Assembly: GCA_037131105.1 (NCBI GenBank)
Contig: JBAXRQ010000001.1
Span: 560,589 to 624,588, forward strand
From: a bacterium
GTDB taxonomy: Bacteria; Patescibacteriota; UBA1384; CAILIB01
Length of the DNA: 64,000 bases
Reading direction: 5' to 3'
Below the pieces are notes generated by a model. That model worked only from the letters and a program-made list of their open reading frames with translations. It searched no databases and was not told the DNA's origin. This document shows positions 28,325 through 60,301 of the stretch, piece by piece; within the stretch, counting starts at the first letter, position 1; every line of letters starts with the position of its first letter. A program made the translations under genes and the position numbers.

Positions 28325-29458
28325 CTAACCACTCTTCTTCCGATACGTAGCTAGACGTACCAGCCAGTAACCCACAAACAACACCAAAGCCGCTGCCAAC
28401 AGTGCCAGCAGAACCGGCCAGCTCAGGCCGACAAGCACTGCCAGGGCGGCCCACCATCTCCTTCGGTTCGGAGTCGCACTCCCCTCAACTGCAACTGCCG
28501 TCATCCCAATGAACAGAATAACCGACAGGCCAAGGAGGTAGTTTGACAAAATGTTCAGCCAAACCCGGATCACCACGTTCGGTACGTTGGTCAGGGTCAC
28601 CGATGGCTGGCCCGTATAACCGACATCGCTCCATTCGCGGGACCTTCCCTGTGAGACCATGCCGATCTTCTTCCAAACCAGATCGTTGGTCTGCTGCCAG
28701 GTCCAGTACGAGACCGCGTTATACCCGCGCGTGCGCTTGCCGAACTCCAGCACTTCGCTGGCCTCAGACAAACCATACGTCTGACCAAGGGGCACTATCG
28801 GCTTCTTGATGCCGTTCTCATGCTCCCAGGCCTTCCACTCTCGGTAGGTCCAGTTGACGGTCTCTTTGACGGACCTCCCCATCGTCCTCCAATACATCTG
28901 GGGCTCAATGAAGTCAGTACCGCCTACCAGGACCTGGTAGGGAAGCGCTCGATGCTTGGAAGGAATGGCATAGGGTGCGAATCCGAGCAGCTTCTGGGGA
29001 CACTTAGTCGTCCTGTAGTCAGAAACTTCACTGACAAGCTGCTCAGTCTCCCCCCACTTTGGTTTGGACTCCATCGGCGTCTCCGTGTTGTACACGTAGC
29101 CATCGACATAGTCGCGGGACAGCCAGTCGCAGATCAGGTGGGCCTCCTCATGCGGATGGTTTGCATGGTTGAAGCCCCAGACGAAAACCTTTATCCCTGC
29201 GGACTGCATGGCCCTGGCAATCTCGGGCACCCGGTCAGCCTCCACGTAAAGCTGGATGCCGTCGTGCACCTTCAGGTAGACATGACCGATGCCGGCCGCC
29301 TTGGCCTGGTTGACCATCTCTGCGGGCGTACCGCACTTGCTGGGCTGCCCGATCCAGATACCGACCCCGATCTGCCTGAGCTGGTCGGATACCGGCGCTG
29401 CCTGGACCATCGAAGTCCAAGCACATACAAACAGTGCTACTATCAAAGAACGTTTCAC
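28325..29458 (-). CDS. Secreted/membrane-anchored putative glycoside hydrolase (TIM-barrel, GH25-lysozyme-like pattern) with a C-terminal transmembrane anchor; start moved to the GTG giving signal peptide MKRSLIVALFVCAWTSMVQAAP
   Basis: SD GAGGGAGCAAGA-GTG and its own consensus promoter; GH25-like spacing of GI..G / AKAAGI..YLKVHDG / AGIKVFVWGFNH blocks; C-terminal hydrophobic stretch plus RKKSG. Confidence 0.5.
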   Translation of the reverse strand: MKRSLIVALFVCAWTSMVQAAPVSDQLRQIGVGIWIGQPSKCGTPAEMVNQAKAAGIGHVYLKVHDGIQLYVEADRVPEIARAMQSAGIKVFVWGFNHANHPHEEAHLICDWLSRDYVDGYVYNTETPMESKPKWGETEQLVSEVSDYRTTKCPQKLLGFAPYAIPSKHRALPYQVLVGGTDFIEPQMYWRTMGRSVKETVNWTYREWKAWEHENGIKKPIVPLGQTYGLSEASEVLEFGKRTRGYNAVSYWTWQQTNDLVWKKIGMVSQGRSREWSDVGYTGQPSVTLTNVPNVVIRVWLNILSNYLLGLSVILFIGMTAVAVEGSATPNRRRWWAALAVLVGLSWPVLLALLAAALVLFVGYWLVRLATYRKKSG

Positions 29459-29489
29459 TCTTGCTCCCTCTAAAATGAAGTGACGCCTT

Positions 29490-29518
29490 ACTATAGGCAG
29501 TTTATCGTCTTCTGTCAA
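29490..29518 (-). promoter_or_regulatory. Sigma70 promoter TTGACA-17-TATAGT for the glycoside-hydrolase-like gene
   Basis: Consensus -35 and near-consensus -10 with 17 nt spacing, immediately downstream of the rplA terminator. Confidence 0.65.
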
Positions 29519-29520
29519 TA

Positions 29521-29550
29521 AAAAAGAGCCCCTTAAGGGGCTCTTTTTTA
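29521..29550 (-). terminator. Intrinsic terminator after rplA (agagcccc-ttaa-ggggctct, flanked by A6/T6; bidirectional)
   Basis: Perfect 8-bp GC-rich stem plus a U-run on the minus strand, 15 nt after the rplA stop. Confidence 0.7.
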
Positions 29551-29564
29551 TTGCTTCGGCTACG

Positions 29565-30494
29565 TTACTTAACCGCGATCTCCACCTTCACACCGGGACC
29601 CATGGTAGGGGCAAGGCTGATGGACTCGATTTTGTTTGAGGCAAGAAGCTGTTCCAAGATACGGAAGTTCTCTACCAGCTGTTCGCTCTTGAAGGAAACA
29701 CGGCCGATAGCCAGGTGCACTACGCCGCTCTTGTCAGCCCGGTATTCGATACGGCCGCCACCGATCTCAGTGCGTGCTTTCTCGATATCCTCGGTGACGG
29801 TACCAGCCTTAGGAGACGGCATCAGACCCTTAGGACCCAGCACCTTGGCGTACTTGGCAAGCTTTGGCATCTGGGCAGGAGTAGCCAGCAGGATGTCGAA
29901 GTCAAGCTTACCAGCGGCGATAGCCTCTAAGGTCTCGTCGTCAGCAACGGCTACTTTCTTAGTTTTACCAGTGCCGTGGGGCAGGGTAACCATGCCGCGC
30001 AGACCTTCAGTCTTCACCTTGGCGTGCAGCTCAACAGTGGCGTCAAAGCTGACGTAGGACAGCTGCTTGACCAGCTCAACGGCTTCCTCGATAGGGTAGG
30101 CCTTACTGCGGTCTACCAGAGCGATCTTGGCCCGGTACTTCTTGCCACGCAGACGGAGGGGGTCCAATACTTTGGTAGGGGCCGGTGCAGGAGCGGCTCC
30201 CTTGGCCTCACGGGCGGCGGCAGCCTTCTTGGACTTCTCAGAGGTGCTCTCACGGCCCTTCTTGGCCTCTACGGCCTCCTCGTCAACGATCGCAGCCTCC
30301 TTCTCAAGCTGTGAATAGTCGATCTCGGTCGCCGCATCTGCCTCACGAGCAGTGTCATTGTCGGTGTTCATGGCGGACTCCTCAGCGGGGGTGACTTCGG
30401 CGCTGCCGGTCACCTGCTCGAGCTCTTCCAGTACCATGTCGTTCTCGTCCTGGTTCTGATCCATAGGATCATGCTTGATGGCGTCATCAGCCAT
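29565..30494 (-). CDS. rplA: 50S ribosomal protein L1 with a ~85-aa acidic low-complexity N-terminal extension
   Basis: Residues ~95-309 are a canonical L1 core; N-terminal D/E/A-rich region with no alternative start nearer the core. Confidence 0.85.
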   Translation of the reverse strand: MADDAIKHDPMDQNQDENDMVLEELEQVTGSAEVTPAEESAMNTDNDTAREADAATEIDYSQLEKEAAIVDEEAVEAKKGRESTSEKSKKAAAAREAKGAAPAPAPTKVLDPLRLRGKKYRAKIALVDRSKAYPIEEAVELVKQLSYVSFDATVELHAKVKTEGLRGMVTLPHGTGKTKKVAVADDETLEAIAAGKLDFDILLATPAQMPKLAKYAKVLGPKGLMPSPKAGTVTEDIEKARTEIGGGRIEYRADKSGVVHLAIGRVSFKSEQLVENFRILEQLLASNKIESISLAPTMGPGVKVEIAVK

Positions 30495-30542
30495 ATGTGC
30501 CTTTCTGATGGTGCTAGCGCCGATTTTCGGCTCCCATCTTAC

Positions 30543-30625
30543 ATGTTTTGACTTCGCTTTTACTCACTGTCCTCGTTCTCCCTTGTTACCGACTGCGGAG
30601 GCGAGAAAAAGCGAAGTCAAAACAT
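30543..30625 (-). promoter_or_regulatory. Perfect 19-bp inverted repeat (ATGTTTTGACTTCGCTTTT ... AAAAGCGAAGTCAAAACAT) with a 45-nt spacer in the pth-rplA intergenic leader
   Basis: Exact reverse-complement arms at 30543-30561 and 30607-30625; no U-run follows on the minus strand, so it is not a classical terminator. Confidence 0.45.
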
Positions 30626-30645
30626 TTCTACTAATTAATTGGATC

Positions 30646-31224
30646 TTACGGATGGATGGTCTCCTCCGCAAGAGTGCCTTGCTCGAGCCACTCTACCAGT
30701 TTTGGGACTACTCTGTCAATCGCCTGCTCCACCATCTTGCGCTCATGGGCAGGGAGCGGCTGCAGTACGTACTCGTCGAGCGGCGGCTGGTGCACGCGGT
30801 GCTCAGGATGTTGCTCGTACAGTCCTACTCCAATCTTGACCCGCCAGAACTCATCGGAGCCGGAATGATCCAGGAGCGACTTCAGTCCGTTGTGTCCCCC
30901 ATCCCCGCCTGACTTGCGCACCCGTACCGACCCTGGAGCGATGTATACATCATCAGCAATGACGCAGATGTCCTCAGGAGCCACCCCGAAATACTCTACG
31001 ACTTCGCGTACCGGCCGGCCAGAGGTGTTCATGAACTGAGTTGGCTTAAAAAGCAAAGACTTGGTAGTTCCGCTGCCAATTTCCCAGAGCTCGCCGTCCT
31101 TAAACTGCTTAGCCTTCCCCGCCCCTAGCTTTTTAGCTACAGCATCAAGACAGACGAAACCTATAGTATGACGATCGCGCACGTGCTGTTCCCCGGGATT
31201 TCCCAAACCGATGAGTAGACGCAT
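30646..31224 (-). CDS. pth: Peptidyl-tRNA hydrolase
   Basis: MRLLIGLGNPG...H motif typical of Pth. Confidence 0.9.
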   Translation of the reverse strand: MRLLIGLGNPGEQHVRDRHTIGFVCLDAVAKKLGAGKAKQFKDGELWEIGSGTTKSLLFKPTQFMNTSGRPVREVVEYFGVAPEDICVIADDVYIAPGSVRVRKSGGDGGHNGLKSLLDHSGSDEFWRVKIGVGLYEQHPEHRVHQPPLDEYVLQPLPAHERKMVEQAIDRVVPKLVEWLEQGTLAEETIHP

Positions 31225-32786: not shown

Positions 32787-34673
32787 TTACCGGATGTCCA
32801 GGTTCTCCAGGCTCTTCTTCAGGGCCTTCTTCAGCTTCAGGTAGCGAGCAAGTCCTGCACCTAGTCCAGAAGTGGTTCCTGCTAGTAGCAGGCCAGCTTC
32901 AGGGCCGGTCTTAGGCAACTGAGGCGGAACCGTGACAACTACGGGAGACGGACTTGGGGTCGGGCTATGCGTAGGAGTCGGGGTAGCGGTAGGAACTGGG
33001 GTCGGAGTAGGAGTCGGACTTGGGGTAGGCGTAGGTGTTGGCGTAGGCTTCGGGGTAGCTGTTGGCGTGGGGGTAGGGGTAGCCGTAGGCTTGGGAGTAG
33101 GAGTCGGGGTGGGCTTTGGCGTAGGTGTAGGCGTGGCCGTAGGGGTAGGCTTCGGAGTCGGGGTTGGGGTCGGCTTCGGGGTAGGAGTCGGAGTAGCCGT
33201 AGGTGTTGGGGCAGGCGTAGGAGTAGGAATGACACAGGCAGGCAGGATAGCCGTAGCAGTGTCGCTCTTCTCTCCGGTTCCGTTGGCCTTGATGAAGGCG
33301 GTGTTCACCGCAGTGGTCTGAGCCACGAGACAACGAACCTGAACCTTCAGGGTAATCGTCTTACCATGACCGGGGTCAAAGGTGGTCAGGATAATACCTC
33401 CCTTGAAGAAGGCGTCCTGTACCGGCTGAGACTGAACCGCGTTGTCGATGGTCAGACTGTTAGGCACATAGGTGGCACCGGTAGGCAGCACGTCACGCAG
33501 GGTAGGATTCACAGCGGTAGTGTTGCCAGTGTTACCGACCAAGATACGGTAGGTCAGGGTCTGGTTAGGGTTAATCAGTCCGATAGAGTCTACGTAGGCA
33601 CCGGTAGCGGGGTTCTGAACGTCCTTTACGACGGTCAGACCGCGGGTGCAGGAAATCAAGGTGGTAGCATCGTCAGAGGCCTTTACAGCGCCCTGGTATA
33701 CGATCTGAGCCTTGTCGACAACGGTTACGTCGGCACCACAGTTCGAAGGCGCAATGGCCTCAAACTGGATACGCTGGTATCCGCCGGTATGAGGCTCCAG
33801 GCTGGAGAACACATAGCCGCCGTTCACGATGGCATTACCCGAGATAGGGGTACCGTTCGTGTTGTTCTGGTTGGTCAAGAGAGCGTTGCCAGCATAGGTG
33901 AACCCAGCAGGCAGCACGTTCTTCAACGAGACATTGTTGGCAGTAGTATTACCGGTGTTCAGGATGGTCATACGATAGGCCACCTTGTCACCAGGAGCGA
34001 TGATAGCAGTAGCGGCATCGTACCAGATATCATAGCCGAGACTCATGTCACGGACCTCATTCTTCACGCTGAATGAGGTTACCGGAGTACCGTACCGGGT
34101 AACGGTATAGGATACCGGATTGGTGACAGCGCTTACCCCGTCAAACGAAGAGGTAGCGGTATTGGTATAGGTAGTCTGGCCAACCGAGAACTGGTCGTCA
34201 GAAGCAAGGCGAGCCTTGAACTGAAGATACAGGGCAGCGTTTGGCTGAGGAGCCATGTCAACGAAGGCCCAGCCAAGGTCATGACCGTTGTTCTTAATGC
34301 TCATGTAGCTATCCGAAAGCGGATAGTCATGGTCCTTGTTATCGCTGCCCTTTACCCGTACGAACGAGCTGTTAGGGGTATAGGTCAGACGAGAGTCAAG
34401 GTGCTCTACGATCTTCGGGTGGGCGCCGTTAGCGTCACCGGTGTTCTCAAGGAGTACGCGGAACGCCAGCGAGTCACCAGGAGTAGCCTGGGCACTGGAA
34501 GCATACTCGGACTGCCCGCCGGACAGCTGTACGGCAAGCCTGGTGTTGATCTGGGGACCAGAGGTCGCAATGACCGACTGCATACCCATGAAGCCAAGGG
34601 CCAGGGCGGAAGCAGCCACCACAAAGCGGGTGCCGAATCGTCCCATGGATGTAAGGAGTGAACTTTGTGTCAT
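32787..34673 (-). CDS. Cell-wall-anchored surface protein: signal peptide, DUF11-type repeat domains, Pro/Thr-rich stalk, LPKTG sortase motif plus hydrophobic segment plus basic tail
   Basis: C-terminal [31 protein letters not shown] is a canonical LPXTG sorting signal; ~100-aa (PTPT/PKPT)n linker. Confidence 0.7.
32932..33235 (-). repeat. Degenerate tandem DNA repeats (GGNGTNGGN-type units) encoding the Pro/Thr-rich stalk of the LPXTG protein
   Basis: Visible periodic gtaggngtnggngt units on the plus strand; explains the Gly/Val shadow ORFs on the opposite strand. Confidence 0.6.
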
Positions 34674-45806: not shown

Positions 45807-45835
45807 TTGACAAGAAAAGTTGGCTATGGTAGTAT
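45807..45835 (+). promoter_or_regulatory. Sigma70 promoter TTGACA-17-TAGTAT on the plus strand, in an otherwise minus-strand region
   Basis: Consensus -35, good -10, AT-rich upstream region. Confidence 0.55.
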
Positions 45836-45841
45836 CAGATC

Positions 45842-45985
45842 ATATTTGAGCGACCAGGTTGTCTATCTATCTACGCAGCCAACGATCTTTGCCCCTCCTT
45901 TGGATCGGGCCCGCAAGGGCCGGCACGTAGATAGATACATCACCTGGTCCAAGCACAAAAACACCGCCTTCAAGCGGTGTTTTTA
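45842..45985 (+). ncRNA. Candidate ~145-nt small RNA: outer 8+13-bp stem enclosing a hairpin with a 15-nt C-rich loop (UUUGCCCCUCCUUUG) and a GCAA-tetraloop hairpin, ending in an intrinsic terminator
   Basis: Transcript bounded by the promoter at 45807-45835 and the terminator at 45957-45985; 64-codon ORF has no SD and unusual composition. Confidence 0.4.
45957..45985. terminator. Bidirectional intrinsic terminator (aaaaa-acaccgcc-ttcaa-ggcggtgt-ttttt) serving the small RNA candidate (plus) and the rplK transcript (minus)
   Basis: 8-bp GC stem flanked by A5 and T5. Confidence 0.7.
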
Positions 45986-46136
45986 GTTGCAAGCGGTAAA
46001 CGTGTCCGGTACAGATCCCGTAAACGTTTTCAGGGAGATGAATTTTGAGGAAGAAGTGAGTATTCGACCGAGGCGTACTGACGTACGTCGAGGAAGAAAC
46101 GGAGCTTCTGACAAAGAAATTCGCTCGCTGAAACGT

Positions 46137-46568
46137 TTACTTTTCGACGTCGACGCCCATGGATCGAGCAGTTCCCGCAATTATCTTAGCCGCCTCCTCA
46201 GGAGTACGTGCGCTAAGGTCCGACATCTTGATCTCAACGATCTTGGCCATCTGGTCCTTGGTAAGGGTACCGATCTTGGTCTTCTTTGGATTGGCGGAAC
46301 CTACCTTGATACCGAGTGCCTGCTTAATTAGTACGGCTGCAGGTGGCTGCTTCAGGATGAAACTGAAGGTACGGTCCTCGTAGATGGTAATTTCGCAAGG
46401 AATGATGGTATCGCCCTTGTCCTTGGTAGCCTCATTGAACTGCTTACAGAAGTCCATGATGTTAATACCTTGAGGACCGAGAACAGTACCTACTGGAGGT
46501 GCAGGCTGTGCCTTACCGGCTGGACACTGCAGCTTGATGATAGTCTTGATTGGCTTTTGAGTGGCCAT
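46137..46568 (-). CDS. rplK: 50S ribosomal protein L11
   Basis: Canonical L11 sequence (KLQCPAGKAQPAPPVGTVLGPQGINIMDFCKQFN...). Confidence 0.92.
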   Translation of the reverse strand: MATQKPIKTIIKLQCPAGKAQPAPPVGTVLGPQGINIMDFCKQFNEATKDKGDTIIPCEITIYEDRTFSFILKQPPAAVLIKQALGIKVGSANPKKTKIGTLTKDQMAKIVEIKMSDLSARTPEEAAKIIAGTARSMGVDVEK

Positions 46569-52244: not shown

Positions 52245-52350
52245 AGATTCACAGTAGCGCAATTCGAGTCTTTTCTCAATGCGATCCTGGCCTACCTATC
52301 GCTGAAAACTGATCGCAGTCGGAAATTAGATGCGCGCCTTCGGCGCACGC

Positions 52351-53253
52351 TCAAAAGTTTTCAGCGATAGGCAGCCCAGGTACACGACAAATGCCGCGGA
52401 GTTTGGCGGACCTACTGCGCGGATTGGTATTCCTCTCCTCCTCAGTTGCCTCAATCGGCTTCTTGGTCAGGAGCTCAAAACCTCCGGCTGTTACAGCCTC
52501 CCGGAACCGATGCTTTACGATGCGATCCTCAAGAGAATGAAAGGAAATGATAGCCAGACGTCCCTCCGGTGCCAGCAGAGACAGGGCGTCGGCAATCCCC
52601 TGCTCCAGCACATCCAACTCCTGATTCACCGCGATCCGTAGGGCCTGAAAAACCCGGGTGGCCGGATGAGGATGCTTATGGCGTAGATGAGGTGGATATG
52701 CACCTTTGATCATATCGGCCAGATCCATAGTATTGGTAAACGGTCGTTTCTGTCGCCGCTCGAGAATCAGGCGGGCCAGCTTCCGGCCCAGGCGCTCCTC
52801 GCCGTAGGTAAAGAAGATTTCGGAGAGCTTATGCTCGGGCCAGGTATTAAGAATAGACGCTGCTGTCACCCCTCCGCGCTGGTCCATACGCATATCCAGC
52901 GGTCCCTCTTCTTGAAAGGAAAAGCCACGATCTGGAGTATCGATCTGGTAACTGGAAACTCCAAGATCCATCAGTACACCGTCAACTTGGGTGATGTCAC
53001 GCCCCTCGAGAAGAAATTTAAGATCACCAAAATTACCCTGAAGATAGTCGGCCTGCTTCCCCAGTCGTTTCTTAGACTTCAAAATGGCTTCAGCGTCCTG
53101 ATCGATGCCAATGACTCGCAGATTTTTCCCTCCCCTTTCAAGCATGGCAAGGCTATGGCCGCCCAGCCCAAGAGTGGCATCAACAAAAACCCCTCCTCGC
53201 TCGGGAAGTAAAAGCTCTAGCACTTCGTGCTCTAGGACTGGTATATGGGACAT
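52351..53253 (-). CDS. rsmH: 16S rRNA (cytosine1402-N4)-methyltransferase RsmH (MraW)
   Basis: MSHIPVL...DATLGLGGHS SAM-binding signature. Confidence 0.9.
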   Translation of the reverse strand: MSHIPVLEHEVLELLLPERGGVFVDATLGLGGHSLAMLERGGKNLRVIGIDQDAEAILKSKKRLGKQADYLQGNFGDLKFLLEGRDITQVDGVLMDLGVSSYQIDTPDRGFSFQEEGPLDMRMDQRGGVTAASILNTWPEHKLSEIFFTYGEERLGRKLARLILERRQKRPFTNTMDLADMIKGAYPPHLRHKHPHPATRVFQALRIAVNQELDVLEQGIADALSLLAPEGRLAIISFHSLEDRIVKHRFREAVTAGGFELLTKKPIEATEEERNTNPRSRSAKLRGICRVPGLPIAENF

Positions 53254-59393: not shown

Positions 59394-60257
59394 GTGGGAA
59401 AGGCCTCCACAAATTTCGGTATCTGGTTCCTGGTCTTTCTGGCCCTAGGCAGCTTGGCATCAAGCCAATACCTCTACGATGCCGGCGCTGACGGCTATAC
59501 CCATCAGCTGAAGGCAGCCATCCTCCACAACGACCATCCCCTCATCCCCTCCCTCCCTATCCTTAGGGCGCTGAGTCTGGGTAATACCTCAATGACCGCC
59601 GATATCCTCTGGCTGCAGACCATCCAGTACTATGGCGGCGGCGATATCTACGGAAAATACGAATCGCTCGGTTCCCTGCTGGACACCATCACCCAGCTCG
59701 ACCCCAAGTTTAACTACGCCTATCAGTTCGCCCTCATCGTATTGCCGTACATGGGACAGGCCGATATGGCGGTTAAGATAGGATTACGGGCCCAGCAGGA
59801 AGGCCTCAATGACGGCCTCATCACCTATTACCTGGCCAGCGTCTACCATTTGAATCTCAAGGAGTACAAGCAGGCCGCCAAGTACTACCAGCTGGCTTCT
59901 ACCCAGTCCGGCTCGCCTACCGCCGCCAAAACACTGGCCGCCACTGCCTTGGATAATGTAAGCGGTAGCCTGGCCGACCGCCTGGTGGCTGCCGACTACT
60001 GGAAGACCGTCTTTGACAATGCCACCGATCCCGACCAGAAGAAGCTGGCCGCCAGCTGGTACCAGCAGATGCAGAATGTCTATAGCATCGAGAAAGCTTC
60101 CCAGGACTTTCATGCCAAACAAGGACGCTTCCCAAACAGCCAGGAAGAGCTGGTGCAATATGGATTGCTGCCAGCCGAACTTGGCTCGCCGGTGGGACGG
60201 GTCATTACTTTAGATCCCAAGAGTGGGAAGGTGGACTTCAGCCAACGAGCTCAGTAA
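59394..60257 (+). CDS. Hypothetical exported/membrane protein with TPR-like helical repeats (GTG start after GGGAGG)
   Basis: N-terminal hydrophobic helix; YYLASVYHLNLKEYKQAAKYYQLA repeat-like helices. Confidence 0.5.
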   Translation: MGKASTNFGIWFLVFLALGSLASSQYLYDAGADGYTHQLKAAILHNDHPLIPSLPILRALSLGNTSMTADILWLQTIQYYGGGDIYGKYESLGSLLDTITQLDPKFNYAYQFALIVLPYMGQADMAVKIGLRAQQEGLNDGLITYYLASVYHLNLKEYKQAAKYYQLASTQSGSPTAAKTLAATALDNVSGSLADRLVAADYWKTVFDNATDPDQKKLAASWYQQMQNVYSIEKASQDFHAKQGRFPNSQEELVQYGLLPAELGSPVGRVITLDPKSGKVDFSQRAQ

Positions 60258-60271
60258 AACGCTCACAAACT

Positions 60272-60301
60272 AAAATAGGACCACAATTGCGGTCCTATTT
60301 T
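60272..60301. terminator. Bidirectional terminator between convergent genes (aaaa-taggacc-acaattgc-ggtccta-tttt)
   Basis: 7-bp stem flanked by A4/T4. Confidence 0.65.

Follow-up and report, generated by a model that had tools for sequence, protein, structure and literature searches.

The L1-interacting RNA and a detached rplA gene

The L1-interacting RNA was described by Fu et al. in 2013 as a small RNA bound by ribosomal protein L1 and built as a stem of 6–12 bp with an internal bulge (PMC3616713). The motif precedes rplA in Cyanobacteria, Actinobacteria and Chloroflexi, rplK in Proteobacteria, and both genes in Firmicutes, where a Kd of 25–50 nM was measured (PMC3616713). In Methanococcus vannielii it is found before an rplA gene that is detached from rplK, and binding and repression by L1 have been shown for the members of Escherichia coli, Geobacillus kaustophilus and M. 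vannielii (PMC3616713).

The window studied here, meaning the whole stretch of 64,000 nucleotides (64 kb) that was analysed, belongs to a member of the Patescibacteria (CPR), a group outside that survey. The rplA gene (29565–30494, minus strand, with its ATG at 30494–30492) encodes an L1 of 309 aa and follows pth (30646–31224, minus strand), an open reading frame for peptidyl-tRNA hydrolase recognised by the Pfam domain Pept_tRNA_hydro. After rplA come an ORF of 397 aa and then rplJ and rplL, whereas rplK (46137–46568, minus strand) sits 16 kb away, immediately after nusG. An earlier note on this DNA had inferred the same gene order and, because rplA is split from rplK, had expected an L1 site just before rplA; the order and the detachment of the two genes are both borne out. 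The arrangement recalls that of M. vannielii, with rplA away from rplK and the likely L1 site directly before rplA. The nearest L1 relatives are Patescibacteria (CPR) MAGs with 59–72% identity in L1, and nine of them, all with the pth-rplA arrangement, were used for comparison (L003–L006, L083, L084 and L163–L165).

Some other features of the neighbourhood can be mentioned. The N-terminus of the L1 protein (29565–30494, minus strand) is prolonged by an acidic stretch of ~100 aa not present in ordinary bacterial L1, and the alignment with Bacillus L1 begins near residue 116 of the 309; the extension is common to the whole clade, whose L1 proteins have ~290–330 aa. The 397-aa ORF (28325–29518, minus strand) has no Pfam domain, shows predicted membrane segments and is preceded by a strong promoter-like site of its own, TTGACA-17-TATAGT, with 11 of 12 matches. 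In the relative L163 rplJ comes directly after rplA, and other relatives carry different small ORFs in the rplA-rplJ spacer, which for this variable content appears to be an insertion hot spot. Farther upstream, at 32787–34673 (minus strand), a surface protein of 628 aa with weak matches to CLIPPER domains combines a long Pro/Thr-rich repeat with a C-terminal sorting signal of the sortase type, LPKTG.

The L1 element itself is a stem-loop of 33 nt at 30506–30538 of the minus strand (GAUGGGAGCCGAAAAUCGGCGCUAGCACCAUCA), with the sequence GAUGGGAG-CCGAAAAUCGG-CGCUAGCACCAUC. It is composed of an outer helix P1 (AUGG/CCAU), a conserved GAG, the P2 hairpin GCCG-AAAAU-CGGC and then CGCUAGCA. It ends 11 nt before the AUG and adjoins a Shine-Dalgarno-like GAAAGG read from the sequence (30500–30505, minus strand), which directly follows it and stands 5 nt before the AUG; in the relatives, an AGGAG is found 1–4 nt after the ACCAC. 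It shares with the L1-interacting RNA of the published survey a short helix that is broken by the conserved GGGAG/ACC core and capped by a variable hairpin, a likeness to 23S rRNA, and a place directly ahead of rplA, beside the ribosome-binding site. It differs from the family in that its P1 is AUGG/CCAU and not GUGG/CCAC, in that its gene follows pth and appears to be monocistronic (with a promoter inside pth and a terminator after rplA), and in having an unrelated hairpin of 88 nt next to it.

A pattern of GUGGGAG, a short variable hairpin and CGYUnnnACCAC occurs 7–14 nt before the rplA start in the nine relatives and in the window. The motif was also found before rplA in other CPR lineages and before rplA, rplK or both in Bacilli and Erysipelotrichia, for ~55 loci upstream of either gene. 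A covariance model built from 18 instances of the motif (R1) scores the operator at 32.5 bits, and a leave-one-out model built without the window sequence (R2) still gives it 24.6 bits (E = 0.0018), as the sole match on both strands of the window (128 kb searched). With R1, 32 leaders (28 of them distinct) were recovered in which every cell is paired (100%) and changes on both sides affect 3 of the 7 pairs; none of 500 shuffles reached this covariation score, although the alignment was fitted to the model and the counts consequently lean towards structure. Moreover, the window copy itself carries a compensatory G-C to A-U change in P1. A weak second match of R1 at 60222–60286 (E = 0.85) was not recovered by R2 and was taken as chance, and a search of the whole window against Rfam at gathering thresholds returned no matches, the operator included.

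The likeness to the L1 stalk of 23S rRNA (H76–H78) can be followed in E. coli, where GGUGGGAGGC...GACCUUGAAAUACCACC (also GGUGGGAGGC...GCCGACCUUGAAAUACCACCC) shows the same GUGGGAG...ACCAC frame as the operator, a mimicry of H77/H78 that was judged against the E. coli 23S rRNA and the family consensus. From the covariance-model matches, the covariation and the position, the stem-loop at 30506–30538 is likely to be the L1 feedback operator of the known L1-interacting RNA family, and we infer its binding of L1 from that membership. An rRNA mimic directly upstream of rplA, as the earlier note had proposed, is present within the interval that was flagged, but it is this small element and neither the long inverted repeat nor its spacer. 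In the minimum free energy fold (30487–30510, minus strand), the sequence CAUCAG, made of the end of the operator 3′ strand and the first bases beyond it, pairs with CUGAUG in codons 2–4 of rplA; such a pairing encloses both the Shine-Dalgarno and the start codon in a loop, and might form in place of the P1 helix.

A promoter-like site was detected by consensus scan within the 3′ end of pth (30690–30719, minus strand), with TTGACA, a spacer of 18 nt and a TG-extended TAGAGT (10 of 12 matches, with the TG). The arrangement TTGACA-N15-TGnTAnnnT is kept in all ten orthologous loci, and across them the codon within the −10 sequence varies, specifying E, G, N, R, Q, H, K or Y; in the same region of pth, Ile is always ATA, Val always GTA and Leu always CTG in the ten genomes. 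Such invariance of codons at the nucleotide level suggests that the 3′ end of pth is under a dual constraint, as coding sequence and as promoter. We regard this site as the predicted promoter of an rplA transcript that would start near 30683. On the other side of the gene, a perfect palindrome of 19+19 nt (AAAAAAGAGCCCCUU/AAGGGGCUCUUUUUU, 29516–29553) is a two-way intrinsic terminator directly after rplA, which for this reason appears monocistronic here.

The leader would read, in order, the tail of pth, the long hairpin (in this species only), the operator, the Shine-Dalgarno and the AUG. By analogy with the characterised members of the family, L1 in excess of free 23S rRNA would bind the operator and, once there, would hinder the binding of ribosomes at the adjoining Shine-Dalgarno, blocking the initiation of translation of its own mRNA. 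Since the terminator follows rplA, this control should be exerted on rplA alone.

A palindrome next to the probable operator

The leader of rplA probably contains two unrelated RNA structures, the operator of the L1-interacting RNA family and, 4 nt upstream of it, a young palindromic insertion of ~88 nt that is specific to this species. The sequence ATGTTTTGACTTCGCTTTT at 30543–30561 of the plus strand has its exact reverse complement at 30607–30625, giving 19 perfect base pairs. This inverted repeat, which the earlier note had reported and which was confirmed exactly, is far beyond chance; no further copy of ATGTTTTGACTTCGCTTTT with up to 3 mismatches was found within the 64-kb window, nor in 100 shuffles. 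With one mismatch, the arms reach 23 nt (30543–30565 and 30603–30625) around a loop of 37 nt. The inverted-repeat search and folding define in this way a long hairpin at 30543–30625 of the minus strand, with a stem of 23 bp (19 perfect, one mismatch and no G-U pairs), which begins 20 nt after the stop codon of pth and leaves 48 nt up to the start codon of rplA. In the minus strand, which is that of the mRNA, the loop has the sequence GCCUCCGCAGUCGGUAACAAGGGAGAACGAGGACAGU and contains CGCAGUCGGUAACAAGGGAGAACGAGGAC, as had been described for the spacer.

An RNA of 91 nt comprising the hairpin folds with −38.1 kcal/mol (z = −6.9 against shuffles), and the whole rplA leader with z = −5.05. In the latter fold the hairpin is self-contained and the L1 operator is left free. 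Both strands of the hairpin fold about equally (z = −6.9 and −6.6), which, together with a perfect stem free of G-U pairs, argues for a palindrome at the DNA level and not for a stem selected as RNA.

The comparison with other genomes points in the same direction. The hairpin is absent from all nine closest relatives despite their common pth-rplA arrangement, and the repeat structure is thus not conserved among them. The gap between pth and rplA measures 151 nt here against 54–56 nt in L163–L165, and the distance from TTGACA to the operator 182 nt against 83–93 nt in the nine relatives. In a MAFFT alignment of the leaders, a single block of 88 nt (ATGTTTTGAC...AAAACATGTAAG) is opposite a gap in 9 of 9 relatives and both flanks align; this block of ~88 nt corresponds to the hairpin plus 5 nt (GUAAG, 30538–30542). 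The missing hairpin, the different gap lengths and the single gapped block altogether indicate that the inverted repeat is a species-specific insertion. The immediate flanks of the hairpin show no clear target-site duplication, GTAGAA and GTAAGA being only similar, and GTAAGAT, present both at the stop codon of pth and beyond the hairpin, was rejected as such a duplication because the intervening 20 nt align to the spacer of the relatives.

Judged from these sequence comparisons, in which the closest relatives share 72% L1 identity, the hairpin is most probably a palindrome inserted at the DNA level, young in evolutionary terms and devoid of a conserved regulatory role. Its action would be at most that of an element of processing or stability in the 5′-UTR through double-stranded RNA, of the RNase III type. 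The reading as a young insertion is supported by a second species-specific hairpin in the same window (52286–52380), with arms of 25 nt and a loop of 45 nt, at the very 3′ end of rsmH and before rnhA. Neither of the relatives L169 and L170 has it. In this genome it took the place of the final ~5 codons of RsmH, so that an ending in ...RGIEKLP before the stop codon became ...RGICRVPGLPIAENF.

Alternative readings of the long hairpin

It is unlikely, but deserves to be considered before any other alternative, that the hairpin is a functional RNA element gained by this species, either an RNase III site or a stabiliser that sets the 5′ end and the half-life of the rplA mRNA, for example uncoupling it from read-through of pth. 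Substrates of RNase III are near-perfect double-stranded RNAs of ~20 bp or more, a size class to which the near-perfect helix of 23 bp belongs, and in this regard the stem would be long enough for a substrate, as are the RNase III-processed leader hairpins of E. coli rnc and pnp. It is located within the predicted 5′-UTR, downstream of the conserved promoter, it folds alone with the operator undisturbed, and the second hairpin at 52286–52380 likewise occurs between two genes of the same strand. Moreover, the maintenance of a 23-bp helix 4 nt from the operator in a streamlined genome of ~0.95 Mb could mean that a function has been acquired. The relatives, however, manage without the hairpin, which for want of conservation shows no sign of selection, and the second hairpin damaged the 3′ end of a coding sequence and looks accidental.

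Somewhat more doubtful is the possibility that the hairpin is a copy of a mobile palindromic family (MITE-, REP- or PATE-like) to which the hairpin at 52286–52380 would also belong. As in REP/BIME, MITEs and PATEs, we find a near-perfect hairpin of ~90 nt that is species-specific and placed between genes of the same strand, and two such species-specific hairpins within 64 kb, with arms of 23–25 bp and loops of 37–45 nt, would fit a family. The two have in common an exact 9-mer, CGCAGTCGG, with no other copy in the window; in each hairpin it lies 3–5 nt after the 5′ arm, at the same relative position and on opposite genomic strands. On the contrary, the arms of the two hairpins share no sequence, their local alignment lacks significance, its score being reached by 60 of 500 shuffles, and no further copies were found in the 64 kb of the window, out of a genome of ~949 kb. 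A BLAST of the hairpin against plasmid and phage collections gave no match either. In contrast with the known elements, then, the hairpin of the rplA leader comes with no demonstrable repeat family, no shared terminal repeats and no clear target-site duplication.

A more speculative proposal, to which we give little credit, is that the hairpins of the rplA leader and rsmH both belong to a hitherto undescribed Patescibacteria class of insertion elements that form hairpins. The members of such a class would differ in their arms and conserve a short loop motif, CGCAGUCGG, directly behind the 5′ arm; they could insert at the 3′ ends of genes in either orientation, and might be recognised by structure rather than by sequence, like integron attC sites or the ends of IS200/IS605.

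Several particular identities were also considered for the hairpin and rejected. An integron attC site would carry the R′/R″ cores (GTTRRRY / RYYYAAC), which are absent from the hairpin ends. The sequence GCAGUCGGUA is reminiscent of a D-loop, but a tRNA-like element lacks here its T-arm and any match to tRNAs or Rfam. A promoter brought by the insertion was discarded, with no acceptable −10 following the TTGACT of the 5′ arm, and an ORF of 17 codons with a GUG start, which extends from the loop across the operator and is confined to this species, was judged a chance occurrence and not a leader peptide.

The proposal of the earlier note, that the long inverted repeat would be, via its spacer, a relocated L1 autoregulatory site, is now very improbable. 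The hairpin does lie in the rplA leader and its loop has GGGAG, the first half of the L1 core, but it offers no ACC partner for the GG/CC helix, and every position of the hairpin scores 0 bits or less with the L1 covariance model run with filters off, in comparison with 32.5 bits for the adjacent operator; the similarity to the L1 site that was looked for in the repeat is therefore nil by this model. The nine relatives devoid of the hairpin still keep the small operator. Furthermore, H76 of 23S rRNA encloses H77/H78, whereas the long hairpin stands beside the L1 motif, has no sequence similarity to the stalk and is no equivalent of H76.

An equally slight chance is left to a U-less terminator or attenuator that would end the transcription of pth, as might be suggested by a strong hairpin 20 nt past its stop codon. 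The bases after the stem (GUAAGAUGGGAG / GUAAGAUGGG) form no U-run and the terminator scan makes no call, in agreement with the earlier note, which had already dismissed a terminator; canonical terminators of hairpin plus U-run are used elsewhere in this genome, and the relatives have no terminator between pth and rplA. Moreover, termination at the hairpin would silence rplA, because the rplA promoter lies upstream of it. Least credible of all is an assembly artefact in the form of a fold-back chimera, since, even if perfect palindromes can come from amplification or assembly errors, the leader is identical in two assemblies, one from ENA (L001) and one from Logan made with a different run (L002), and its flanks align cleanly to the relatives.

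A third hairpin and the reach of the probable L1 operator

The window holds a third long hairpin (45852–45949), which is not an insertion, as it is conserved in six relatives (L166, L167, L168, L171, L172 and L173). Its locus (45807–45990, plus strand), flanked by rplK and a gene for an mfd-like helicase, is convergent with rplK and keeps the same position in those relatives. On the strand opposite rplK, it is accompanied by a promoter, TTGACA-17-TAGTAT, and by a terminator, and only on that strand does it show stable tetraloops (GCAA, GGAA, GAAA and UUCG-type). The resulting candidate is a small RNA of ~110–140 nt with a long stem, a three-way junction and an invariant core, GCCAACGAUCUUUGCCCCUCCUUUGGAUCG; 11 of its 35 predicted pairs have compensatory changes. 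The loop of one of its stem-loops, UUUGCCCCUCCUUUG, is rich in C, invariant and complementary to Shine-Dalgarno sequences, and another stem-loop covaries and ends in loops of the GNRA or UNCG type. Rfam offered no family for it, and SRP did not appear even at E values up to 10; this result and the three-way junction led us to reject an SRP (4.5S) RNA. Its sequence and predicted fold suggest a small RNA not described before, one of whose loops is complementary to the Shine-Dalgarno. Permissive Rfam searches with each of the three long hairpins of the window, with E values up to 10, yielded nothing but miRNA families, matched as generic hairpins, and local alignments among the three are no better than those of shuffles.

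With regard to the two structures of the rplA leader, the family of the operator is already known and the hairpin is specific to this species. The latter would be of wider importance only if a family of such hairpins were found across the genome, and its function is probably minor. There is, in any case, a lesson for annotation in the fact that a conspicuous perfect palindrome can distract from an adjoining, much smaller and true regulatory RNA. The small operator extends the known distribution of L1 operators, and indicates that this ancient feedback element stays with rplA even in a streamlined CPR genome where the gene has parted from rplK and comes after pth.
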